DNA of 43,386 bases from the IMG/VR virus record IMGVR_UViG_2563366976_000013, one strand, 5' to 3'. Shown piece by piece: positions 2,398 through 43,386 of this stretch. Every line of letters begins with the position of its first letter. Within the stretch, counting starts at the first letter, position 1. Below the pieces are notes generated by a model, which was not told the origin of the DNA, did not search any database, and worked only from the letters and a program-made list of their open reading frames with translations. This stretch comes from a virus. Taxonomy: Duplodnaviria > Heunggongvirae > Uroviricota > Caudoviricetes. Position numbers and translations under genes: made by a program.

Positions 2398-2695
2398 GTT
2401 TAGACCTCGATACTTTAAAAATTTGAACGACGTTACCGCGCGTTTTAATAACCGCAGCCAGCATGACAGCGTTGATAATGACCTCAGATAAATCCACAGC
2501 CATTGGCGTACGTAACCAGATTGCATAGGCGACTCGAACAGGAATACTGGCCGCAGCAACAATCAGGAAATAAGCAAGCCATCCTCCCCACCTTCGATGT
2601 TGAGAGCCGTTACGCCGGAATGTGACAACGCGAATTGCTATGCCAGTGCAAATAACTGCATTAGTGATAAGCAAAAAAAACTCATGCGTTACCAT
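2387..2695 (-). CDS. Holin (three predicted TM helices)
   Basis: 102 aa, hydrophobic segments, charged C-terminus; RBS GGGGAG; overlaps endolysin start by 11 nt. Confidence 0.6.
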
Positions 2696-3086
2696 CGTCT
2701 TTTCTCCCCGGAATTAACTCGCGTGGATTATCGGAACGGTGATAGAGCCATATACCAATACGCACAGCGACAATTGCTGACACGAATGCGCCTGCAGAGA
2801 AAACAATCCCTTTTTCAAAAGAGTCCTGCGTGATGGTAGGGATCAGGCTGGCTATGCCGATAAGAATTGATGCTGCTGGTTTGTAAAAGAGAAGGCCGCA
2901 AAGAAAGCTGAGCATCGACAGGAGCACCCGGCGACGGATGGGGTACTCTACTGCAGAGGTAACAAAAATTACCGCCCCAGCCAAAGCCCCTAAAGCAACC
3001 TCCGGAGGGACACCTGCAATAACTGCAGCAAGAGAACCAAAACTAAGCAACTGATTTAATTGCTCACTTGTTACTTGAGCAGACAT
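2682..3086 (-). CDS. Holin-like / antiholin-like polytopic membrane protein
   Basis: 134 aa with about 4 TM segments; RBS AGGAGA 7 nt upstream; first gene of lysis cassette, overlaps next gene by 14 nt. Confidence 0.5.
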   Translation of the reverse strand: MSAQVTSEQLNQLLSFGSLAAVIAGVPPEVALGALAGAVIFVTSAVEYPIRRRVLLSMLSFLCGLLFYKPAASILIGIASLIPTITQDSFEKGIVFSAGAFVSAIVAVRIGIWLYHRSDNPRELIPGRKDDGNA

Positions 3087-3366
3087 ACTTTCTCCTGTTT
3101 ACTATCTATAAGCCAGTCAATTATTGATGACTAAACCCGCATAGTAAACCATATATGAATCATTATTGTTCCATATCATATATCTCAATAAAAGTACTAA
3201 TGATTTTACAGAACGGGCCAGCAGAGTGGGGGCAGTTGTACAGGAACCATAGACTTAATTTTGTATTTAATAATGCTATGGTGTAATAAACCTGAACATG
3301 TATTTAAAATACGTACTGATTCATGATAGAATTCAAAGATAACTTTTCACCAACTCCGTTTTTGAT

Positions 3367-3394
3367 ACCCGCAATATTTTGCGGGCTTTTTTTT
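3367..3394 (+). terminator. Rho-independent terminator oriented for plus-strand (antisense to late operon)
   Basis: Stem CCCGCAA/TTGCGGG followed by T8 on plus strand; minus-strand version lacks U-run. Confidence 0.45.
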
Positions 3395-6300
3395 AACGTT
3401 CTTCCAGAGACTGAACCCGCTCTTTTATCTTATCCATTTCTCTGCGCTGCCATGCTGCCTCGATATAGAATAAGAGATCAGGTCTGACCCCCCATCTAGA
3501 TCCTGCTGGCGTTATTTCAACGCGCTCAATGATGTCTTCTATTACCATCACTGGATTATCATCCTCATCAACAATGATGCTCCCGTCATTATCAGTCAGC
3601 GGCATTTCCCTTTGGCCAGTAATGACGTCATCATATACTGCGGGATAATCGTCATAGCAAAGAAAGGCATAGCGGCATGTTGTGCTTTCTTCTTCCATGA
3701 GTCCGTGAGAAATAAGAACATCACGAAGTTGCTGCGCGATTACACCATGATGTATCCTCGCCCCTTCTTCCCCCTTTATAGCGACAGCGTTCAGCCATTT
3801 ATAAGCGATATACCTGACGTCACCCCAGGCATCCAGCAATGCTTCGTCAGGAGAGACCGGCTCTGTCTTTAATGTTCCGTCACTGGTAACCACAGGATTG
3901 GAGCCAAGATAAACTATCGAGAACCTGTTTCCCGGACCACCAAGAGCATTTACATTATCAAGATAAGGTTTAACATCTCCGTTCTCAAAAAGATGTTCGA
4001 GTGCGTTATATACCGCGCGACGTGGAGTACTGCTTCCGGAACCATGCAACGTTATCATTGCACCATCTGCTGAAGACGTTGTTTCACCGCCGCTAACGAT
4101 TAATCTCTGAGCGGTAACATCATCAGACGGTACTTTCTTCGCAATAATGGCGTAATTACCCTCAAGTTTGACTTCCGCGCGAACTTGTCCTGATGTACCT
4201 GCATGGACAGTCAGTGACTGGACGGCAACATCATCTGTGAAATCAACGGGTACAGGAACCGTCCTCACGCCTGACGTCGACATAAAAGTAGGAAGCGTTC
4301 TGTTAGGAGTGGCTCCGTAGACAAAATCCCTTGAAACAAATTCTTCCTGTTTAATTTTCACCCTGAAACAATACAAATCAGCCGGGTGACCATCGTGAAC
4401 ATAAGGATATTTTCTGTTGTTATCCCCTATGCTCCATGGGTTTAGAAAGTCTTCCCCACCGAAAATGTAGTACAGCCAGTTGTCTTTGATACAAACTGAA
4501 CCAACACCAACCGCAGAGTTAACTATTCCGCCCTGATAAATCTGATCAGTAACATTAACCCACTCTACATTATCCAGACTCCACTCATTGACGTTAACTC
4601 TGGTCATAAATGTTCTTGGATAATTTCCTGCATAACGGTTATCAGGTTCTCCTCCTTCCCACTCACCAAATGCGCGCTCACTGCCAAAAATAATCAGCTC
4701 ATCGCCAACTTTGGCAAAAGGAAGGTTTGAGTGATGAACATTATTTGGGAAGCGAAGAGAATTCCATGATGTACCTAAATCAGAGCTTCTGTGCAATGAA
4801 CTACCGGGTTGAGTACTTAATGTCCCCCTGGTCGTCAGATACAGAATGCCATCATAATATTTTACACATGGCTCAGATGCATTCGCCTCATATTCTACAG
4901 GTATGCGTCTGCGAACAAAGCTACCAGGAGAACCGAAAGCATCAGAGAAATAGAGTATCCCAAGCTCGCGTGGACCAATATCACCATTATGGTAGCCAAC
5001 AGCAAAACTGTTATCGCTAATCGTCGCAAAACTGTGAATCTCAGTAACAGGAGTGCTTCCGTCAACAAAAGAAGGAATAGTTCCAAGACTGGTTTTTCTC
5101 CATGGTGACGAGTGAAATGATGTGCCAAAACTCCAGTATCTACCCTCGTTATTCTGATCCACATCCTGGGTATTTTGCGTCGTAACTGTAAAGGTATTTT
5201 TATCAATAACAGTAGTCACCGTCATATTCCCGGTAACACCTGTAACACCAGAGTTTGAGAAGTTGACAAAATCACCAGCAAATAATCCGTGATCAGTAAT
5301 GCGAATATAAGCGACTTGCTGATTTGCTGCTTTCGTTATACCACCATAAACGCGAAGGCTGCGACTCATTGGGCGATCCCACAACTCTGCAACCTGCAGT
5401 TTATTTCCTCTCACGGTCCGCGTCTCAATTACAGCAAAAAGGCGATTTCTGACAACCCCCATACTCATGCAGTGATAGTTAACTGTGGGATAGTTTTTAT
5501 GTAAATCTGTAAGCCATTCCGGCGTTGTCCAGGTCTTCCCGTCATCTCCTGAGCGAACCCATGCAACATGGAGGTTATTTACACCATGGCGGTCTCCAGC
5601 CATAAAAGGCGCATAGATGACATTGTCATATACAAACGTTTTATCCTGCGTCCAGGCGTTGTACCACGGTGTATCTGTAATTTTAAATAACTCTCCCTGG
5701 ATAAAATCTTCAGAAGCATAAAAAAGAGGCTGGCCCGGTATTCTCTCAAATAAAAAACGAGCATTTTTAAATCGACTGACATCCGGAAGAGTTGATACTT
5801 TAAAAGTAAGCCCTAATCCGTCAATTTTATAACCTGGAGATGAGGCTTCAAGGCACGCGCTTATTGCAGTGGAATCGTCATTTATACCATCACCAACAGC
5901 TCCAAAATCTTTGGGGCTAATAGCATCACGCATTTTATCCTGGAACGTTCGGTACACAGCCCCAGAACCATACTGAATAAACCAACCAAAACCACCAACA
6001 ACTCCGGAGATTGCAGCATCGACATAATTACGCATTGAGCGATTATTTACAGCGTCCTGCTCAAATGATGGATCTGCAAGGTTAGAAATTTTGTTTTGCT
6101 TTGCATCGTAATATTTTGCAAGCAAAGATGGTTTCATCAATGCACGTCTGAACCACCCAAAACATTGCTGGATCAGCATCGTCAGGTAGTCAAAGGCATC
6201 TTCATGCACTTCGGGGAAAAATTTTCCCTGATTGCGAAGGTCTGTGTCCTGCACTACATCAAGCACACGATCTATCGTAATTCGCCATCCAGTAGCAAGC

Positions 6301-6512
6301 GGAGACGGAAGAACCACAGAACCGCCACTATAAGTGCCCGCCCCAGTTACCGTATAACCGGTATCCAGAACCAATTCTGTTACGTTTCCGTTCAGGTCAG
6401 ACACCTGAACAACCAGGTCTGATTTTCTGAAAATTCGAAAAGTATACGGAAACGATGTCGTAACGCCGTTACCGGTGTATTCGTTGTGGTCAACTTCGGT
6501 TGAGACCGTCAT
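3393..6512 (-). CDS. Tailspike: endo-N-acetylneuraminidase (endosialidase, K1 polysialic acid capsule depolymerase) with T7 gp17-like N-terminal adaptor and C-terminal intramolecular chaperone domain
   Basis: Long colinear matches to K1-phage endosialidase as recalled from memory (GQPLFYASEDFIQGELFKITDTPWYNAW, TVNYHCMSMGV, C-terminal ARIHHGVIAQQLRDV...CRYAFLCYDDYP); N-terminal region resembles T7 tail-fibre N-domain; RBS GGAG. Confidence 0.85.
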   Translation of the reverse strand: MTVSTEVDHNEYTGNGVTTSFPYTFRIFRKSDLVVQVSDLNGNVTELVLDTGYTVTGAGTYSGGSVVLPSPLATGWRITIDRVLDVVQDTDLRNQGKFFPEVHEDAFDYLTMLIQQCFGWFRRALMKPSLLAKYYDAKQNKISNLADPSFEQDAVNNRSMRNYVDAAISGVVGGFGWFIQYGSGAVYRTFQDKMRDAISPKDFGAVGDGINDDSTAISACLEASSPGYKIDGLGLTFKVSTLPDVSRFKNARFLFERIPGQPLFYASEDFIQGELFKITDTPWYNAWTQDKTFVYDNVIYAPFMAGDRHGVNNLHVAWVRSGDDGKTWTTPEWLTDLHKNYPTVNYHCMSMGVVRNRLFAVIETRTVRGNKLQVAELWDRPMSRSLRVYGGITKAANQQVAYIRITDHGLFAGDFVNFSNSGVTGVTGNMTVTTVIDKNTFTVTTQNTQDVDQNNEGRYWSFGTSFHSSPWRKTSLGTIPSFVDGSTPVTEIHSFATISDNSFAVGYHNGDIGPRELGILYFSDAFGSPGSFVRRRIPVEYEANASEPCVKYYDGILYLTTRGTLSTQPGSSLHRSSDLGTSWNSLRFPNNVHHSNLPFAKVGDELIIFGSERAFGEWEGGEPDNRYAGNYPRTFMTRVNVNEWSLDNVEWVNVTDQIYQGGIVNSAVGVGSVCIKDNWLYYIFGGEDFLNPWSIGDNNRKYPYVHDGHPADLYCFRVKIKQEEFVSRDFVYGATPNRTLPTFMSTSGVRTVPVPVDFTDDVAVQSLTVHAGTSGQVRAEVKLEGNYAIIAKKVPSDDVTAQRLIVSGGETTSSADGAMITLHGSGSSTPRRAVYNALEHLFENGDVKPYLDNVNALGGPGNRFSIVYLGSNPVVTSDGTLKTEPVSPDEALLDAWGDVRYIAYKWLNAVAIKGEEGARIHHGVIAQQLRDVLISHGLMEEESTTCRYAFLCYDDYPAVYDDVITGQREMPLTDNDGSIIVDEDDNPVMVIEDIIERVEITPAGSRWGVRPDLLFYIEAAWQRREMDKIKERVQSLEER

Positions 6513-6616
6513 GTTAAATCTCCAGATAGTCGCAGCACCCGTTGCGCCGCATATCTGGTTATTCTATTACCTGGAAAACCACATATGGATAGAAAGGCTG
6601 TAAATACGAATAGATA

Positions 6617-6631
6617 TTACCTTTCAGGTAA
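6617..6631. promoter_or_regulatory. Operator-type palindrome TTACCtttcaGGTAA
   Basis: Perfect 5-5-5 inverted repeat; same motif family as cI/cro operators. Confidence 0.5.
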
Positions 6632-6668
6632 TTTGCAAAACGTGCTGGATAGCAAACAAATTATTTGC

Positions 6669-6688
6669 TACTGTATAAATATACAGTT
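6669..6688 (+). promoter_or_regulatory. LexA (SOS) box TACTGTATAAATATACAGTT
   Basis: 18/20 match to consensus TACTGTATATATATACAGTA, CTGT-N8-ACAG core intact; 20 nt upstream of ATG at 6708. Confidence 0.7.
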
Positions 6689-6707
6689 ATTGCATGGAGA
6701 AGATAAG

Positions 6708-6965
6708 ATGCAGCAGTATCACTATCCACTGGAAGACGGATTTACCGAAAGGATTCACACGCCGGGAGGCGTCAGGTCACTGGTGGAGGGATCGCACTTG
6801 ATGAAATTACTCCGGGATCTCGATAAGGATGGATTTAATGTCGATGGCCCACTTGCCGAACTGACTGCACTGATTAACTACGTCACCAGCTCACAGATGT
6901 CTATGCAGGATCTGCAAACACATCTCGACTATTGTGCCGAACAATTACGAAAACAAACCAGATAA
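6708..6965 (+). CDS. Small SOS-controlled antirepressor-like protein (standalone version of the Ant C-terminal domain)
   Basis: 85 aa from ATG 6708 with RBS GGAGAAG; aligns with C-terminal about 80 aa of the three Ant paralogs (PL..G..IH.P.GV..L.E.S.LM.LL..L..DG..V.G..AELT....Y......DLQTH..Y). Confidence 0.6.
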   Translation: MQQYHYPLEDGFTERIHTPGGVRSLVEGSHLMKLLRDLDKDGFNVDGPLAELTALINYVTSSQMSMQDLQTHLDYCAEQLRKQTR

Positions 6966-6968
6966 GGT

Positions 6969-7011
6969 TTGCAATTACCAAATGGAGTGCTTATATTTAC
7001 CTTTGCGGTAA
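6969..7011 (+). promoter_or_regulatory. Promoter for ant1 leader with overlapping operator
   Basis: -35 TTGCAA (6969-6974), 17-bp spacer, -10 TATATT (6992-6997), palindrome TTACCtttgcGGTAA 6997-7011 over the start site. Confidence 0.55.
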
Positions 7012-7038
7012 ATTTACATCGCACTCCTCTTGTGCCAT

Positions 7039-7090
7039 AGTAATCAGGCACTGGCAAAATCCAGTGCCGGGATTGGTCTCCCGGATTACT
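7039..7090 (+). ncRNA. Conserved structured leader RNA element upstream of ant1 (three-way junction fold), followed by leader terminator
   Basis: AGTAATC...GATTACT outer stem enclosing hairpins GGCACTGG-caaaat-CCAGTGCC and CCGGGA-ttggtc-TCCCGG; near-identical copy in ant2 leader (11160-11213, minus strand). Confidence 0.45.
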
Positions 7091-7104
7091 ACAGAGGCAC
7101 ATAT

Positions 7105-7124
7105 GCCGCATAAGCGGTTTTTTT
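7105..7124 (+). terminator. Leader terminator/attenuator upstream of ant1
   Basis: Short GC stem GCCGC-ataa-GCGG followed by T7 run; analogous stem plus T7 in ant2 leader. Confidence 0.45.
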
Positions 7125-7278
7125 ATGTGTAAAGCGCACCTATTCTATGGTGGGCTGTGTGGGGGCACCGAAAGGTGCGCCGGGTTCCTTTGTAGCCGGT
7201 AAGACCAACTCTGCACAGTTCACCACCATCTGATTGGTCTCAGCGGTGGTGATTAACCTAACTACAAAGGTGATCGCC

Positions 7279-7971
7279 ATGAATACCAAACCTTCCATCT
7301 TTTCCTTTGAGTCATCCTGCCAGATCCGTATGTTCATGATTGACGGAGAACCTTGGTTTGTCACCAAAGATGTGTGCAATGCTTTGAATATTGATGTTAC
7401 ACAAGCGAGAAAACTTGATAAAAAAGGCTGGAACAAAAAGGGGCTGTATTCAATACAGACCCCTGGTGGAATACAAGAACTATCCATCGTTTCAGAATCA
7501 GGTCTCTACATCCTTATTCTGCGTTGCAAAGAGGCAATGACTGAGGGAACGAGAGCATTCAGATTTCTTGAATGGGTTACAGGCGAAGTACTTCCTCAGA
7601 TCCGCCGCACCGGAAGCTACATTAAAAACTCGCTCCCGCAGGAAGAACGCATAAAGATGGTTGCCGACCAGGTAGCCAACGCCACGGCGTCAGCAGTAAT
7701 GCAGGCGATGAAGATAGAGAACAAAACCTACAGCGCCCCACTGAAGCCCGGCTACCGCAGCCTGATTCATTCGCCGTCTGGTGTTCTCGGCCTGACGGAG
7801 AACTCACTGCTGATGAATCTGCTGAACCAGTTACAGGACGACGGGCACGACGTATCGGGCGCGGCGGCGGAGCTGACCACCATGTTCTGCTACATCGTCG
7901 GTGTGAGCAAATGCCTGCGTGATATCCAGACCCACGCGGAATACATCAACGACAAGGCAGGGTTCTTCTGA
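7279..7971 (+). CDS. Antirepressor paralog 1: Bro-N/KilA-N-type N-terminal domain plus shared Ant C-terminal domain
   Basis: IDGEPWFVTKDVCNAL motif (Bro-N-like); C-terminal 100 aa near-identical to the other two paralogs; start at ATG 7279 with RBS AAAGGTGA (ORF track begins at upstream TTG 7234). Confidence 0.75.
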   Translation: MNTKPSIFSFESSCQIRMFMIDGEPWFVTKDVCNALNIDVTQARKLDKKGWNKKGLYSIQTPGGIQELSIVSESGLYILILRCKEAMTEGTRAFRFLEWVTGEVLPQIRRTGSYIKNSLPQEERIKMVADQVANATASAVMQAMKIENKTYSAPLKPGYRSLIHSPSGVLGLTENSLLMNLLNQLQDDGHDVSGAAAELTTMFCYIVGVSKCLRDIQTHAEYINDKAGFF

Positions 7972-8014
7972 CGGGCGGCGGCACAGGGATGTGCCTTTAA
8001 ATAATTCTGTACGA

Positions 8015-8057
8015 TTGCAGACCGGGGGTGAATAGCGTACTATTACCTTAAAGGTAA
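8015..8057 (+). promoter_or_regulatory. Promoter/operator module (J element) upstream of YafO-like cassette 1
   Basis: -35 TTGCAG, 17-bp spacer, -10 TACTAT ending at first T of palindrome TTACCttaaaGGTAA (8043-8057). Confidence 0.5.
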
Positions 8058-8099
8058 ACCTGTTTTTATTTTATACCTGTAACTTACCGGAGATTAAAG

Positions 8100-8426
8100 A
8101 TGACAAAACTTGGATTCGTGATGAGAGGTCCGGTAAGAAGCGGAACTCATGCAAAGCGTAGCAAGAGTCGTATTTTTACTGGTAAGGTTGTAGCACGTAA
8201 ATCAGCTATTGGCTCGTTCAATAGTGAAAATGCGGCATTGCGCCATATTTTTATCAGCACAAAGCCAAGAGCATCCGCTGATGTGCATACAATGTCTATT
8301 CCTATCACAAAGAATATAAAGCGGATAAAAAAGCTCTCATCTGCAGAATCAAAAGAGATATCTTTCCGCCAGCTTAACTCATTAGAAACGCATATGAAGG
8401 AAGAGGAATTCGATGTTTTTGAGTGA
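8100..8426 (+). CDS. Putative antitoxin/partner protein of YafO-like toxin 1 (basic, no recognised fold)
   Basis: 108 aa, RBS GGAG, overlaps toxin start by 14 nt (translational coupling); weak similarity to partner of cassette 2 (ARKSAIGSFNSE vs ARRSFNGSVE). Confidence 0.35.
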   Translation: MTKLGFVMRGPVRSGTHAKRSKSRIFTGKVVARKSAIGSFNSENAALRHIFISTKPRASADVHTMSIPITKNIKRIKKLSSAESKEISFRQLNSLETHMKEEEFDVFE

Positions 8427-8925
8427 GTATAGCGGGAAGGTTATACCTACTGGTGAGTTTAAAACTGATGACTTTCTGATTTCGCTAAAAGATGCTTTTA
8501 AACAACACTGGCGTCATGGTCATCATCCTGATCTGGGAAAAGATACTCTTTTTGAAAGACCAGAGGAAGTATTAGGCTTCCATCTCAGAAAGGTTCATGT
8601 CAATATTGGTGAATATGCATCATATTCATACTCATGTACTGAACAGTGTTGGGATGAGTGGTCATATGGATTGATTGATGAACAAGGAAATTACAGGCCA
8701 AAACCAACCAGTAACGCATATCTCATATATGCAGTCAATGAAATAAGAGATGCAGCCTTACTAGCTTATTGGGACCCGCCCGCACACACCAAAGCTAACG
8801 CAAAAGTTTGGATGGATTCCGTATTGAATTTCACAAAATTATTTCATGAACGAACGAATACAGCTCCACTTAGTAGAAATGTTTATCCGTGGGATTATTC
8901 GTACAAATCCAAAAAGCCTGCATAG
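8413..8925 (+). CDS. YafO-like toxin domain protein, copy 1 (type II toxin, ribosome-dependent mRNA interferase family, by motif)
   Basis: Motifs W.HGHHPDLGKD..FERP...L.FHLRKVHV and AYLIYAV...DAALLAYWDPPAH resemble YafO from memory; paralog of 9440..9985; RBS AAGAGGAA. Confidence 0.5.
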   Translation: MFLSEYSGKVIPTGEFKTDDFLISLKDAFKQHWRHGHHPDLGKDTLFERPEEVLGFHLRKVHVNIGEYASYSYSCTEQCWDEWSYGLIDEQGNYRPKPTSNAYLIYAVNEIRDAALLAYWDPPAHTKANAKVWMDSVLNFTKLFHERTNTAPLSRNVYPWDYSYKSKKPA

Positions 8926-8935
8926 TAGTTTTTTA

Positions 8936-9155
8936 TGGACGAAACAAAAGTCAGTGCTACACTCATTGACGCCACATTGAGGTGGCTTATAGATGGAAAT
9001 TTCACAATGAAAAAAGCATTTGCTGCACTGTTCGTTTTGTTGTCTCTGGTAGCGTCAACTCAGGCCTTTGCCGGTCGTTGTCAGCACGACAGCGACACTG
9101 CTGCTGACGGCTCCCGCTGCGGTGGGCGTTCTGCGGATTCCCGCCCGGGCGGCGG
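8936..9155 (+). repeat. Direct repeat copy A (220 bp, one mismatch to copy B at 10007..10226)
   Basis: Identical sequence block containing small signal-peptide ORF; seen directly. Confidence 0.9.
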
Positions 9156-9174
9156 CACAGGGATGTGCCTTTAA
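9007..9174 (+). CDS. Small secreted Cys-containing peptide (55 aa) or gene fragment, copy 1
   Basis: Signal peptide MKKAFAALFVLLSLVASTQAFA then about 30-aa mature part with Cys residues; ends inside J junction sequence; weak RBS. Confidence 0.3.
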   Translation: MKKAFAALFVLLSLVASTQAFAGRCQHDSDTAADGSRCGGRSADSRPGGGTGMCL

Positions 9175-9205
9175 ATAATTCTGTACAGATTGCAGGTGAA
9201 TAGCG

Positions 9206-9225
9206 TACTATTACCTCAAGGGTAA
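9206..9225 (+). promoter_or_regulatory. -10 TACTAT plus operator palindrome TTACCtcaagGGTAA upstream of cassette 2
   Basis: Same J module as at 8038-8057. Confidence 0.5.
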
Positions 9226-9285
9226 ACGGATTGGTTTCATTTTTATTAATCCGTGTAATGAACTTATGAGATATGAGGTAATGTC

Positions 9286-9465
9286 ATGCGAAACGAAAAA
9301 TTGCAGATGCGTAGAGCGCAAGCTGCCGCAAGACGTTCTTTCAATGGAAGCGTAGAGTACGTAAAAGTTACTATGACAAAAGATCACGCAAGTCGCGTAT
9401 CCCGCGCTTTCTTTGATTCTCGTAACAATAAGGAAAATTATGAGTTCGTCTGCGTCGCAGAATGA
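9286..9465 (+). CDS. Putative antitoxin/partner of YafO-like toxin 2 (59 aa, below ORF-track cutoff)
   Basis: ATG 9286 with RBS GAGGT 8 nt upstream; overlaps toxin 2 start by 26 nt; manual translation MRNEKLQMRRAQAAARRSFNGSVEYVKV... Confidence 0.3.
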   Translation: MRNEKLQMRRAQAAARRSFNGSVEYVKVTMTKDHASRVSRAFFDSRNNKENYEFVCVAE

Positions 9466-9985
9466 TAAAAATCAAATTGTCAGATATAAGGGTCGAGTAT
9501 TGCATACGCAAAATTTCTCGGCCCTTTGTGCATCTGATCTTGAGCTGAAGAAAGTATCTGATGCCTTTACCCAGTATTGGAAAACGGGATACCATCCATC
9601 TCTTGGTAAAGATGCTGCATTTGCTCGTCCGACAGAAATGCTTAAACTAAATGTCAGGCATACTCATGTCGATAACCAAGACTATATTCCAGAAGATAGT
9701 GATAAAAAACACACTGGTAAAAAATCATCTTGGGATGCATGGAAAAATATAGCGTCTGTGCAAGTAAAATGCATACCAACAAGTGATTGCTTTTTAGTTT
9801 ATTCGGTAAATCACAATCGTGATGCGCTGGTTATGTTTTTTGTTGACGCAGATGCCCACAACATAACTGAGCAAGAAGAGTTTAAAGAGGCAGCAATCAC
9901 TATCAGTTATCAATTCTTTGAGAAAACAAAAACAGAACCAATGCCTTTAGAAGAAGATCTTTTTTCTGATAAATGGAAGGAATAG
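9440..9985 (+). CDS. YafO-like toxin domain protein, copy 2
   Basis: Motifs W.TGYHPSLGKD..FARP...L.LNVRHTHV and CFLVYSV...DALVMFFVDADAH; start at ATG 9440 with RBS AAGGA; followed by terminator. Confidence 0.5.
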   Translation: MSSSASQNDKNQIVRYKGRVLHTQNFSALCASDLELKKVSDAFTQYWKTGYHPSLGKDAAFARPTEMLKLNVRHTHVDNQDYIPEDSDKKHTGKKSSWDAWKNIASVQVKCIPTSDCFLVYSVNHNRDALVMFFVDADAHNITEQEEFKEAAITISYQFFEKTKTEPMPLEEDLFSDKWKE

Positions 9986-10005
9986 CCCGCAGCGCGGGCT
10001 TTTTT
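9984..10005 (+). terminator. Rho-independent terminator after toxin 2
   Basis: AGCCCGC-agc-GCGGGCT stem followed by T5. Confidence 0.6.
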
Positions 10006-10006
10006 G

Positions 10007-10226
10007 TGGACGAAACAAAAGTCAGTGCTACACTCATTGACGCCACATTGAGGTGGCTTATAGATGGAAATTTCACAATGAAAAAAGCATTTGCTGCACT
10101 GTTCGTTTTGTTGTCTCTGGTAGCGTCAACTCAGGCCTTTGCCGGTCGTTGTCAGCACGACAGCGACACTGCTGCTGACGGCTCACGCTGCGGTGGGCGT
10201 TCTGCGGATTCCCGCCCGGGCGGCGG
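10007..10226 (+). repeat. Direct repeat copy B
   Basis: 220 bp, one mismatch vs 8936..9155. Confidence 0.9.
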
Positions 10227-10239
10227 TGGCATTCGTTAA
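10078..10239 (+). CDS. Small secreted Cys-containing peptide, copy 2 (variant C-terminus)
   Basis: Same signal peptide and mature region as copy 1; differs only in last 5 residues. Confidence 0.3.
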   Translation: MKKAFAALFVLLSLVASTQAFAGRCQHDSDTAADGSRCGGRSADSRPGGGGIR

Positions 10240-10312
10240 AAACAAGGCCGCGAAAGCGGCCTGTGACATGTCACGATAGTTTCGTTTTGCACATCCCTGT
10301 GCCGCCGTTCTG

Positions 10313-10969
10313 TCAGAAGAACCCTGCTTTGTCGTTGATGTATTCCGCGTGCGTCTGGATATCACGCAGGCATTTGCTCACACCGACGATGTAGCAGAAC
10401 ATGGTGGTCAGCTCCGCCGCCGCGCCCGATACATCGTGCCCGTCTTCCTGCAACTGGTTCAGCAAATTCATCAGCAGTGAGTTCTCCGTCAGGCCGAGAA
10501 CACCAGACGGCGAATGAATCAGGCTACGGTAGCCGGGCTTCAGTGGGGCGCTGTATTCTTTTTTGTCTTCCAGCTTGATCGCCTCCATAATGGCGGGCAT
10601 GAAGCCTGACAAGACCTTCTCCACTTTTGTTTCTTGTTGTCTTAAACGTTTCTCGCATTCAATGAAGTAGCGTCGCACCTGGCGACCTTTTTCGTTACGC
10701 TCGACCATCGCCAGCTCTTTGGCTGTATCAAGGGTGAGGTGGTACTCTTTGCGGTTGTGGCCGCCTCTACCAGATGTTTGCTTTCCCAAATTGGAAAGCA
10801 AAATATAGTCTTGATTTTCAATGAATTCGTATTCTGATATGCGATTTGTAATCCATGCTGCAAACACCTTTTTAACACCTAAAAAAGCGTGCAGATCGCG
10901 GGCATTACAAAGTAGGGCTGTTTCGTTAGATATAGTGCCGTTGAATACGGGGATGAGTTGAGCGTTCAT
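10313..10969 (-). CDS. Antirepressor paralog 2: AntA-type N-terminal domain plus shared Ant C-terminal domain
   Basis: N-terminus [23 protein letters not shown], middle [20 protein letters not shown]; C-terminus near-identical to ant1 and ant3; RBS GGAGACG. Confidence 0.75.
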
Positions 10970-11125
10970 GATGGCGTCTCCACTTAGCGAATTACATCAC
11001 CACCGCTGAGACCAATCAGATGGTGGTGAACTGAACGGAGTTGGTCTTACCGGCCTAAGTGGTACCGGCGTCCTTTCGGACCCCCATTCAGCCCACCATA
11101 ATTCTGGCATGACTGTGCTATACGC

Positions 11126-11285
11126 ATAAAAAAACCACGTCTGGCGTGGTATGCGCCACTTAGTAATCCGGGAGACCAATCCCGGCACTGGATTTTGCCA
11201 GTGCCCGATTACTATGGCACAAGAGGAGTGCGATGTAAATTTACCGAAAAGGTAATGATAAACGCTAAGAAATATTAAAATCAAC
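11126..11285 (-). promoter_or_regulatory. ant2 promoter, operator (11241-11255), structured leader (11160-11213) and leader terminator (11126-11150)
   Basis: Mirror image of ant1 control region with near-identical structured element; palindrome TTACCgaaaaGGTAA. Confidence 0.5.
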
Positions 11286-27114: not shown

Positions 27115-27191
27115 GTGGCATTAGCTCAGTTGGACAGAGCAACCGCCTTCTAAGCGGTTGGTCGCAGGTTCGAATCCTGCATGCCACGCCA
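27115..27191 (+). tRNA. tRNA-Arg (anticodon UCU, reads AGA)
   Basis: Manual cloverleaf: acceptor GTGGCAT/ATGCCAC, D-arm GCTC/GAGC, anticodon stem ACCGC/GCGGT with loop CTTCTAA, T-arm GCAGG-TTCGAAT-CCTGC, discriminator G, CCA encoded. Confidence 0.85.
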
Positions 27192-36260: not shown

Positions 36261-36491
36261 TCATGAGTAGAAGAAGTATGCCAGTTCTGCTTTTGAGCGC
36301 AGCCATTGTCTTGTTTTACAGGCTTTAAAAAGCCCATTCATCAATACCTTACCTGGCATTTTGCGCTTACCTGTTAAGTGAGTCTGGATATAGTGACTCG
36401 TCGTTCCGGCTTCCTGTGCGAAGGCTTCACGCTCATCCGGAGTAAGTGCAAGCCAGTGCTTTTTGAAATCGAAATGTCCGTTATCGCTCAT
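36261..36491 (-). CDS. Cro-like HTH regulator
   Basis: 76 aa, first gene of early-right operon divergent from repressor gene. Confidence 0.5.
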   Translation of the reverse strand: MSDNGHFDFKKHWLALTPDEREAFAQEAGTTSHYIQTHLTGKRKMPGKVLMNGLFKACKTRQWLRSKAELAYFFYS

Positions 36492-36527
36492 AGCTATTGC
36501 CTGATATTTATTTCAGATAATAAATAT

Positions 36528-36590
36528 TCACCCATAAGGTAACAAAAATCAAGGATAGTTACCTGTGGGGTGCATTTACCTGTTGGGTAA
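36528..36590. promoter_or_regulatory. Tripartite immunity operator O1-O3 with divergent promoters
   Basis: O1 TCACCcataaGGTAA (36528-36542), O2 TTACCtgtggGGTGC (36559-36573), O3 TTACCtgttgGGTAA (36576-36590); minus-strand -35 TTGTTA / -10 TATTAT overlaps O1. Confidence 0.55.
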
Positions 36591-36645: not shown

Positions 36646-37230
36646 ATGAAAAGTATCCAGGACGTCCGCAGGCAAAATCTCAACGACTTGATCGACCGTG
36701 AATTCAATGGTGTTCAGACGCGGATGGCAGAAAAACTTGGAACTCAGGCAAATCTGGTAAACCGCTGGGCTCTTGGCAAGAAGGTTATCGGCGACCAGGT
36801 TGCACGAAAAATTGAAGCTGCCGCCAATAAACCCCGTAACTGGCTTGATATTGATCGTTCGCTTTCTCAGGAGGGTTTTCAGCCTGTCGGCCCGAGCGAT
36901 ATAGGTCAGCTGGCGGCTCACAACCTGGAACGCTGGATGAGCGAAAGCCGCGACCTTTCAACACAGGGAAAACTTCACCGCGCATCCGGCGTCGCCCAGG
37001 TGACAATCAGCCGCCTGTTAAACAATGAGGTCAGCGTTTCCATTTCCACCCTGGAGAATGTTGCATCCGCATTCGGGCGTCACGGATATGAACTACTGAT
37101 TCACCCGCACGACCCTGCGACTATCAACTATGACCGCTCGCGCTACGCATTGTTACCCGAAACCGAGAAAGCAAAGATCGAAAGTTACATTGAATTTGTC
37201 ATCAACCAGAACGAAAAAAGCAAAAAATAA
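36646..37230 (+). CDS. CI-like repressor with two HTH regions and no recognisable LexA/S24-type self-cleavage domain
   Basis: 194 aa; HTH-like segments near residues 20-45 and 115-140; C-terminus lacks Ala-Gly/Ser..Lys peptidase signature; divergent from Cro-like gene. Confidence 0.55.
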   Translation: MKSIQDVRRQNLNDLIDREFNGVQTRMAEKLGTQANLVNRWALGKKVIGDQVARKIEAAANKPRNWLDIDRSLSQEGFQPVGPSDIGQLAAHNLERWMSESRDLSTQGKLHRASGVAQVTISRLLNNEVSVSISTLENVASAFGRHGYELLIHPHDPATINYDRSRYALLPETEKAKIESYIEFVINQNEKSKK

Positions 37231-41129: not shown

Positions 41130-41453
41130 AATCACGCCTGACGAATCGCGATTATCTCGCTATTGGTATTGCAGAGATTGCTGGACTCAGTGGCGCATGA
41201 TTTGACAATGCCGCCAGAGCTATCGCATACTGACCGCACTAGAACTTCAAAGCGGTCACCCGCACCCGATAGCTTTGCGGCTTTTTTATGCCTGCAATTT
41301 GGCATAGTCACATCCGTACAAAGGTCGGGTGGAGAGGCGTAATACAATACCCAAAAGGGGAATATGCCCGGAGCGTCTTTGAAGGCTCTAGTTGACACCC
41401 GATCACCAGCTACTAACTGGTGATTGCTAACTAAAACTTCAAAGGAGGTCATC

Positions 41454-42104
41454 ATGACCAGTCAACTCATCCCCGTATTCAACGGCACTATATCCAACGA
41501 AACCGCTCTTCTCGTTAATGCCCGTGATTTACACTCTTTCCTCGATGTAGGTAAGCGATTTGCTTCGTGGATTGTCGAACGAATTGCTGAATATGGTTTC
41601 GTTGAAAATCAAGACTTTATGATTATTTCCCAAGTTCGGGAAAAAATAGGCAGAGGCCGTCCTGCAAAAGACTACCACCTCACCCTCGATACAGCCAAAG
41701 AGCTGGCGATGGTCGAGCGTAACGAAAAAGGTCGTCAGGTACGATGCTACTTCATTGAATGCGAGAAACGTTTAAGACAACAAGAAACAAAAGTGGAGAA
41801 GGTCTTGTCAGGCTTCATGCCCGCCATTATGGAGGCGATCAAGCTGGAAGACAAAAAAGAATACAGTGCCCCGCTGAAGCCCGGCTACCGCAGCCTGATT
41901 CATTCTCCGTCTGGTGTTCTCGGCCTGACGGAGAACTCACTGCTGATGAATCTGCTGAACAAGTTACAGGAAGACGGGCACGACGTATCGGGCGCGGCGG
42001 CGGAACTGACCACCATGTTCTGCTACATCGTCGGTGTGAGTAAATGCCTGCGTGATATCCAGACGCACGCGGAGTACATCAACGACAAGGCAGGGTTCTT
42101 CTGA
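41454..42104 (+). CDS. Antirepressor paralog 3: AntA-type N-terminal domain plus shared Ant C-terminal domain
   Basis: High identity to paralog 2 across most of length; RBS AAGGAGG; hairpin CACCAGctactaaCTGGTG just upstream. Confidence 0.7.
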   Translation: MTSQLIPVFNGTISNETALLVNARDLHSFLDVGKRFASWIVERIAEYGFVENQDFMIISQVREKIGRGRPAKDYHLTLDTAKELAMVERNEKGRQVRCYFIECEKRLRQQETKVEKVLSGFMPAIMEAIKLEDKKEYSAPLKPGYRSLIHSPSGVLGLTENSLLMNLLNKLQEDGHDVSGAAAELTTMFCYIVGVSKCLRDIQTHAEYINDKAGFF

Positions 42105-42135: not shown

Positions 42136-43386
42136 TTATTCCCCCGCCATCCACTTCTCAAACTTCGACGGGGAGAACGGAATCAGATCCGTATGCTCCC
42201 CGTTAATCCAGGAATCAATCATATCGGCCCACTGCTGCAACATGTAGGCGCGCTGTCTGGCGTATTCCGCTTTGTTATATACGGCGCGCACACCTTTCTG
42301 CTCATGTGCCAGAGCCTTTTCAATCCAGTCTGAAGGATAACCAGCCTCATGCAACAACGTACTGGCTGTACGGCGCATATCGTGTACGGTGAAGCCCTGA
42401 ATATGCTCACCATCTTCATTTATTATTTTCACCGTTCTGTCGATCAGAGAGTTCAGCGCGGCATTAGATAATGGCTTCCGGAAATTGTAACGACCAGGAA
42501 CCAGATATTCACTTCCACCAGCGCACATCTGCAACCCAACCAATATATCCTGTGCCTGTTTAGGCAGGTAAATAACGTGCGCCCGGCTTCCCTTCATGCG
42601 GTCTGAAGGAATTGTCCATGTCCATTTTTTAAAATCTATTTCATCCCACGTTGCATTGGTGAATTCGCCTTTACGAACCATAGTGATAAGCACCAGCTTT
42701 AAAGCCATTTTCATAGTGCCCATAGCACCAATGGCATCCAGCGTGCGGAAGAACAGGCCAATTTCTTCTGGTGTCAGTGTTCGCTCTCGTGGTTTAAATA
42801 TGGCGATAGACGAAGGTTTAATGTCAGCCGCAGGATTAAACAAACCATGACCACGGTCATTGGCGTGACGGTATACGCTGCTGATGATCTCCCTGGCCTG
42901 TACTGCTGTTGCCCGACCACCGCGTTCGACAATCCGGTCACACAAATCACGAACCATCGATGTGGTAATTTCAGCCATCATTTTGTTGCCAAGAACCGGA
43001 AGTATGTCACGGTCGATCACCGCCTGCTTCATTGCGCGGGTACTGTCAGCCAGGATAACGTGTTTCATATAACTGTCGGTATGTACCGCAAACGTCTCGG
43101 CACCACGAATCTTTTTGATACCGTCACGTTTAGCCGCAGCCGGTGACTGGCCTGCTTTAAGCAGCTTCTTTGCAGCAATCAGTTCTTCCCGCGCTTCTGC
43201 CAGGCTGATACCGTCACGCCCATACTGCCCGATTACCAGTGTTTCGCGGCGACCGTTGATACGGTAGTCATAGCGAAACGAGACCGTGCCTGACGTAAGC
43301 ACAGCTACATACAGCCCGTCACGATCGGAGACCTTGTACAGTTTGTCCTGCGGCTTGAGGTTTTTTAATTTTGTATCGGTAAGCAC
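42136..43386 (-). CDS. int: Tyrosine integrase (phage integrase family), N-terminus truncated by window end
   Basis: N-terminal LTDTKLKNLKP...DGLYVAV arm-binding type region and C-terminal catalytic region with HDMRRT and terminal-Y context; ORF runs off window. Confidence 0.85.
   Translation of the reverse strand: MLTDTKLKNLKPQDKLYKVSDRDGLYVAVLTSGTVSFRYDYRINGRRETLVIGQYGRDGISLAEAREELIAAKKLLKAGQSPAAAKRDGIKKIRGAETFAVHTDSYMKHVILADSTRAMKQAVIDRDILPVLGNKMMAEITTSMVRDLCDRIVERGGRATAVQAREIISSVYRHANDRGHGLFNPAADIKPSSIAIFKPRERTLTPEEIGLFFRTLDAIGAMGTMKMALKLVLITMVRKGEFTNATWDEIDFKKWTWTIPSDRMKGSRAHVIYLPKQAQDILVGLQMCAGGSEYLVPGRYNFRKPLSNAALNSLIDRTVKIINEDGEHIQGFTVHDMRRTASTLLHEAGYPSDWIEKALAHEQKGVRAVYNKAEYARQRAYMLQQWADMIDSWINGEHTDLIPFSPSKFEKWMAGE

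Follow-up and report, generated by a model that had tools for sequence, protein, structure and literature searches.

The stretch of DNA analysed here (43,386 nucleotides in total, referred to as the window) belongs, with a probability of about 90%, to a phiV10/epsilon15-like temperate podovirus (genus Uetakevirus) of Escherichia coli which carries a three-part lytic switch of the SPC32H type; the phage was either integrated in its host or isolated from it. We found all features of such a switch that can be checked on a sequence: a small homologue of the antirepressor Ant, a full-length homologue of the repressor Rep which has no S24 domain, a LexA box, and the matching genome context. The gene order is that of SPC32H: ant and the tailspike gene point away from each other, as do rep and a cro-like gene, and the SPC32H orthologues are annotated as ant and rep in GenBank. 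The Rep–Ant complex of this Salmonella phage is PDB entry 5D50.

As the true relative of the small antirepressor is SPC32H Ant, the finding is a rediscovery: the core switch is already known from genetics and structure (Kim & Ryu 2013 J Virol; Kim et al. 2016 PNAS; PDB 5D50, 5D4Z), and nothing new on the mechanism is added. New are the family of free and fused Ant domains, the latter joined to AntA, Bro-N, pRha or ORF6N, the RNA leader behind which each fused copy of the window is placed, and an operator-like palindrome which occurs at two of the three leaders and 91 nt upstream of ant. The coordinates are compiled in Table 1.

Several other features of the window were recorded. A tRNA gene (27115-27188, plus strand; 73.3 bits in Rfam) is located near the terminase and head region, and SPC32H has a tRNA-Arg at the equivalent place. 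The window starts with a gene for a glycine-zipper/TraT-like lipoprotein (1-516); this end also has DUF5384 and a lysis cassette consisting of an endolysin of the glycoside hydrolase 19 type (1768-2562) and a holin (2682-3086). An integrase gene (42136-43386, minus strand) runs off the far end.

Table 1. Genes, regulatory sites and RNA elements of the proposed switch and of the large antirepressor paralogues
Feature	Position	Strand	Match or remark
Probable Rep operator, palindrome TTACCTTTCAGGTAA	6617..6631	.	91 nt 5' of ant ATG, ant/tailspike intergenic region
LexA (SOS) box TACTGTATAAATATACAGTT	6669..6688	.	ends 19 nt before ant ATG
ant, 85-aa antirepressor, SPC32H Ant orthologue	6708..6965	+	PDB 5D50_E, phrog_450
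Inverted-repeat arms	6986-7091 / 11161-11266; 7195-7253 / 10996-11054; 7716-7972 / 10312-10568		
Operator-like palindrome	6997..7011	.	directly 5' of the -35 of the isrK promoter-like site
isrK-type sRNA leader of paralogue a	7048..7124	+	Rfam RF01394, 74.7 bits (gathering score 50); ends in intrinsic terminator
C4-type antisense RNA element, paralogue a	7143..7230	+	Rfam RF01695, 78.6 bits (gathering score 45)
Paralogue a, Bro-N + Ant-like C-terminal domain	7279..7971	+	Pfam Bro-N 1.8e-13; phrog_450 5e-37
Paralogue b, AntA + Ant-like C-terminal domain	10313..10969	-	Pfam AntA 4e-26; 5D50_E E=4.6e-14, residues 136-212
Mirror-image leader of paralogue b	11019..11255	-	operator 11241-11255, isrK 11204-11128, C4 11103-11019
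cro-like gene, divergent from rep	36261..36491	-	phrog_35 'transcriptional repressor' 5e-12
Immunity-region operators, cro-like/rep interval	36528..36590	.	TCACCCATAAGGTAA at 36528, TTACCTGTTGGGTAA at 36576
rep, 194-aa repressor: N-terminal HTH, second HTH-like region, C-terminal oligomerisation region	36646..37230	+	PDB 5D50_A, 5D4Z_A
sRNA-Xcc1-type RNA leader of paralogue c	41323..41412	+	Rfam RF02221, 62.9 bits (gathering score 53)
Paralogue c, AntA + Ant-like C-terminal domain	41454..42104	+	Pfam AntA 9e-28

The antirepressor gene and its LexA box

In the PDB, the 85-residue ant product matches a single sequence, chain E of 5D50 ('Anti-repressor protein'), its residues 2-84 being aligned at E=4e-47, and the identity to SPC32H Ant is 88% over 83 residues. 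The protein is also matched by phrog_450 (9e-48); a Pfam scan yielded a sub-threshold match to DUF724 only, and no Tum or DinI-type family. The start codon is the ATG at 6708, with a GGAG at 6696-6699, and the gene is read away from that of the tailspike (3393-6512, minus strand), with an intergenic region of 195 nt between the two.

In gene-caller output the start is frequently placed at 6585, which results in a protein of 126 residues and puts the LexA box inside the ORF; many metagenome gene calls of ant use this extended start (126/127 aa). We rejected the extended ORF (6585-6965) as a real gene, as it is not conserved across related phages. Six of nine related phages have an in-frame stop 6-13 codons upstream of the ant ATG, so that the form with 85 or 86 residues is the conserved one; the frame is open in the window and in SPC32H, and partly open in phiV10 (37 codons).

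The ant locus (6560-6970 as query) was detected in 530 of 5,426 complete E. coli genomes, mostly with 95-100% identity. The practical value of the assignment lies in annotation: the gene is called 'hypothetical protein' in the top RefSeq matches listed for E. coli and is often miscalled with 126 residues, phrog_450 is labelled 'unknown function' in PHROGs, and Pfam does not contain a model for the Ant family.

A near-consensus SOS box just upstream of the 85-aa ORF had been proposed by the initial annotation, and the site search supports this in full. The sequence TACTGTATAAATATACAGTT agrees with the 20-mer LexA consensus at all but two positions, and it is the only site with three or fewer mismatches in the 43-kb window; 100 dinucleotide-preserving shuffles contained none. 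Its heterology index is 1.2, as compared with 10.2 for the runner-up in the window, both values being approximate and calculated with a matrix of E. coli SOS boxes.

When the upstream regions are aligned, the box occupies the same columns as the box of SPC32H ant. The sister phage SPC32N differs from SPC32H by a single base, C-to-A, within the ACAG half-site of the box; this mutation reportedly makes Ant constitutive and SPC32N lytic (Kim and Ryu, 2013). A LexA-like box is located 18-19 nt upstream of the ant ATG in nine phages of Escherichia, Salmonella, Enterobacter and Klebsiella, embedded in diverged flanks. The three Uetakevirus phages of Klebsiella have ATGT in place of CTGT as left half-site (ATATGTATATATATACAGTA), and their approximate heterology index rises to 6.4, compared with 1-4.5 in the other phages, which suggests that LexA control of ant may be weaker or altered there. 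A second candidate LexA site in the immunity region, CTGATATTTATTTCAG at 36501, has the pattern CTG-N10-CAG but is not among the eight best LexA-like sites of the window (index above 12.7), and was treated as a chance occurrence.

A scan for sigma-70 promoters between 6513 and 6707 did not reveal any site above threshold. Our guess for the ant promoter is TGGATA (6646-6651) and TACTGT (6669-6674), separated by a 17-nt spacer and scoring 7/12, the sole hand-picked -35/-10 pair whose distance from the box is constant among the phages; several other hand-picked pairs were discarded because theirs is not. If this guess is right, the -10 element would be located in the left half-site of the LexA box, and promoter and box would overlap.

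The repressor and its probable operators

Rep matches chain A of 5D50 ('Repressor') over residues 1-190 (E=3e-42), and its residues 89-190 match 5D4Z_A, a fragment comprising Rep 92-198. The alignment with SPC32H Rep runs from end to end at 43% identity and is gap-free over the last 45 or so residues. A repressor with two HTH regions and lacking an S24 peptidase domain had been predicted, and the Pfam domain search agrees: HTH_3 was found in two matched stretches (best 106-147), a weak HTH-type match below the cut-off (YdaS_toxin) covers residues 21-61, and Peptidase_S24 was absent at E<=1. This domain was also absent from 20 other proteins scanned from the early region and the window ends. 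For SPC32H Rep, the C-terminal 'CAD' domain has been described as responsible for tetramerisation as well as for the contact with Ant (PMC9986798). The DNA-bound form of this Rep is a tetramer, which is broken when an Ant tetramer engages two Rep dimers (PMC9638917).

The cro-like gene has the position opposite rep that SPC32H_042 has in SPC32H. The interval between the two genes contains two copies of the palindrome TTACC-N5-GGTAA, and two such palindromes are located between rep and its divergent neighbour in SPC32H. In the window as a whole, the palindrome occurs 16 times where 0.7 copies are expected (at 6617, 6997, 8043, 9211, 11241, 26778, 27395, 30328, 30346, 34190, 34252, 36191, 36528, 36576, 37288 and 37350). 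Beside those in the rep/cro-like interval, copies flank rep on both sides and are found upstream of ant, at large Ant paralogues and at several accessory cassettes. SPC32H has ten exact copies in equivalent places. The copy upstream of ant is kept at -89/-91 in nine phages, and its counterpart in epsilon15 has been labelled as a 'repressor' binding site in the record of that phage. The palindrome is probably the Rep operator, common to phages whose Reps are only 43% identical. The copy at 6617-6631 may act on the ant promoter, on that of the divergent tailspike gene, or on both.

Large antirepressor paralogues and their RNA leaders

It had been noted that the 85-aa ORF aligns with the C-terminal domain of three Ant paralogues. 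This could be reproduced by tblastn, with 40-42% identical positions in alignments of 74-78 residues (E 8e-18 to 2e-13), and by the common phrog_450 profile, which matches the C-termini of all three at about 1e-36. Identity to Ant is 40% for paralogue a and 42% for paralogue c (E=8e-18), the latter having an AGGAGG ribosome-binding site before its ATG. Despite the two kinds of N-terminus, the Ant-like C-terminus of the three is close to identical; the last 80 residues of paralogues a and b agree at 79 positions.

Each paralogue is preceded by an RNA leader. The leader of paralogue b mirrors that of paralogue a, with isrK (67.7 bits) and C4 (61.2 bits) both above the Rfam gathering score. The isrK element of paralogue a ends in a terminator-like stem (7105-7118) followed by a T run, and its start at 7048 fits a promoter-like site composed of TTTACA (7013-7018), a 17-nt spacer and CATAGT (7036-7041). 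An operator palindrome together with a promoter-like site precedes two of the three leaders, those of paralogues a and b. The window-wide site search did not reveal a LexA box at any of the three large paralogues, which therefore cannot sense SOS by themselves. A search for a coupled upstream ORF resembling orf45 revealed none at paralogues a and b, where an ATGA overlap exists but is not the end of any ORF long enough to be of use; paralogue c was scanned with an ATG position displaced by one base. As no terminator was found between ant and the isrK leader, SOS-induced ant transcripts may run on into this leader.

phiV10, Enterobacter phage Tyrion and a Klebsiella phage share the tandem arrangement ant-isrK-C4-large Ant. 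It is absent from SPC32H, epsilon15, BUCT554 and BUCT711, which do not have a large paralogue; in SPC32H, nothing is located between ant and the tail genes. In phiV10, the Bro-N 'anti-immunity' gene (p23/p22, 3259-3938) appears to be frameshifted inside the Ant-like C-terminal domain, which matches in two pieces, the second of them annotated as a separate 29-aa ORF.

Paralogues a and b belong to a 4.3-kb cassette (6986-11266) which is bounded by inverted repeats (I1-I3). Within the cassette are two YafO-toxin-like ORFs, 8413-8925 (20.1 bits in Pfam, below the cut-off of 25 bits) and 9413-9985 (25.8 bits). It further contains a duplicated block of 227 nt (8929-9155 and 10000-10226), which encodes small ORFs rich in Cys and Gly that begin with a hydrophobic stretch.

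When 1.84 billion representative proteins were searched with a profile, the Ant family proved to be small (65 matches at E<=0.001). Its members are either free (about 80-95 residues) or form the C-terminus of proteins of 130-319 residues, the N-termini of which are AntA, Bro-N, Phage_pRha or ORF6N. The earlier suggestion that the effector domain exists both free and fused thus applies to the window and to the family throughout. A word-indexed protein search with the 85-aa query returned stand-alone orthologues only; the fused forms were recovered only by the profile search.

These data allow a tentative reading which we consider possible, with the odds against it. The SPC32H-type Ant would be the free form of a repressor-binding module that is also the last part of classical large antirepressors whose N-terminus is AntA, Bro-N, pRha or ORF6N, and in this phage two tiers would act on the same Rep: the LexA-gated free Ant as trigger, followed by up to three large copies gated by isrK/C4, two of which have a site resembling a Rep operator. 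If this were true, the large copies would be switched on only once Rep starts falling off, or upon entering an immune cell, and might represent a feed-forward amplifier or an anti-immunity weapon. At the family level, the presence of the Ant module at the C-terminus of AntA, Bro-N, pRha and ORF6N antirepressors suggests, as a hypothesis, which half of these large, poorly understood proteins makes contact with the repressor.

Proposed induction pathway and related systems

By analogy with SPC32H, the switch would work as follows. In the lysogen, Rep would hold the lytic promoters off, probably binding the TTACC-N5-GGTAA operators as a tetramer, and host LexA bound at 6669-6688 would keep ant silent. 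Upon DNA damage, RecA would be activated and LexA would cleave itself, allowing transcription of ant. Ant would then bind the C-terminal region of Rep and split the tetramer into dimers that hold DNA poorly, resulting in prophage induction, and Rep itself would stay uncleaved. In this scheme, the sequence shows that Ant and Rep are orthologous to the crystallised pair, that the S24 domain is missing, and what the LexA box is and where it lies; that LexA controls ant, that Ant binds Rep and that the tetramer is thereby taken apart comes from the SPC32H literature. The chain from LexA self-cleavage to Ant synthesis, and the inhibition of a repressor by protein-protein contact with Ant, have been described (PMC7380047). 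As identity to the SPC32H counterpart is just 43% for Rep, compared with 88% for Ant, binding of this Ant to this Rep is inferred. The initial annotation had postulated SOS induction via a LexA-derepressed small antirepressor which acts on a repressor that does not cleave itself; this is supported, as the orthologous SPC32H parts work by that published mechanism.

The unequal divergence of the two proteins opens an alternative in which Ant no longer acts on its own Rep but targets the repressors of other epsilon15-like prophages, the three large paralogues being the real self-inducers. The presence of three extra genes with an Ant domain would fit, and cross-talk by antirepressors acting in trans is documented for Gifsy and Fels-2 prophages (PMC7380047). 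However, ant, LexA box and rep are kept together as a set in nine phages, including SPC32H, epsilon15, BUCT554 and BUCT711 which manage without a large paralogue. In addition, the gap-free C-terminal stretch of Rep is part of the reported Ant-binding region, and the supposed self-inducers are those genes that have no LexA box. We therefore regard this alternative as improbable.

Two further explanations are less probable still. Inactivation of Rep by RecA-stimulated cleavage through a cryptic mechanism other than S24, with the LexA-controlled ORF being an accessory SOS gene unrelated to induction, draws nothing from the sequence. Its one argument is the cleavage common to most lambdoid repressors; against it stand the missing S24 domain and the full-length homology to SPC32H Rep, a protein which, as Kim and Ryu reportedly found in 2013, is not cleaved during the SOS response. 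The LexA box might also control the divergent tailspike gene, its closeness to the 85-aa ORF being incidental, since it lies in the 195-nt divergent intergenic region and no strong promoter can be assigned on either strand. This is hardly reconcilable with a distance of 18-19 nt between box and ant ATG that is fixed in nine phages with differing tailspike genes, nor with the 157 nt which separate the box from the tailspike start; the base difference in the SPC32N box, reported to give constitutive Ant (Kim and Ryu, 2013), also speaks for ant as the controlled gene.

The switch of the SPC32H type, as the preferred reading, was compared with the known systems. With lambda CI and P22 C2, Rep shares the role of a maintenance repressor, the N-terminal HTH and the divergent orientation relative to a cro-like gene. 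It differs from them in having no S24 peptidase, and induction would proceed by an antirepressor rather than by RecA-stimulated self-cleavage. As the S24 domain is missing, a switch of the lambda-CI type is excluded.

Coliphage 186 Tum and the Gifsy systems had been named as models, and as functional analogues they remain appropriate. Tum of 186 and of Fels-2 is, like ant, encoded by a small LexA-repressed antirepressor gene, and binds its repressor rather than having it cleaved (PMC7380047). Kinship is a different matter: neither Pfam nor PDB revealed detectable sequence similarity between Tum and the 85-aa protein, the true relative of which is SPC32H Ant, and 186 is a P2-like myovirus, not an epsilon15-like podovirus. 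GfoA and GfhA of Gifsy-1 and Gifsy-3 are LexA-controlled small antirepressors as well, directed against repressors that do not cleave themselves and able to act in trans on other prophages (PMC7380047). The Gifsy phages are lambdoid siphoviruses, and the 85-aa protein belongs to a PHROG of unknown function that is not annotated as antirepressor. Gifsy antirepressors and prophage cross-talk are reportedly the subject of work by Lemire and colleagues from 2011.

For the large paralogues only, immI of P1/P7 (c4 antisense RNA, icd, ant) and the isrK-orf45-anrP arrangement of Gifsy-1 provide a parallel, as an isrK and/or C4-type leader precedes an antirepressor gene. The antirepressor AnrP of Gifsy-1 is translated under the control of IsrK (PMC4825925). 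The window differs from both in the C-terminal domain similar to SPC32H Ant and in the palindrome of the epsilon15 type at two leaders; an orf45-like ORF was not found upstream of paralogues a and b.

SPC32H itself differs in host, which is E. coli here, and in having none of the three large Ant-domain paralogues with RNA leaders; between the two phages, Rep is far more diverged than Ant. What they have in common is the complete Rep/Ant/LexA arrangement: orthologous Ant (88%) and Rep (43%), a box ending 19 nt before the ATG, the gene order, the palindrome and the genus Uetakevirus.
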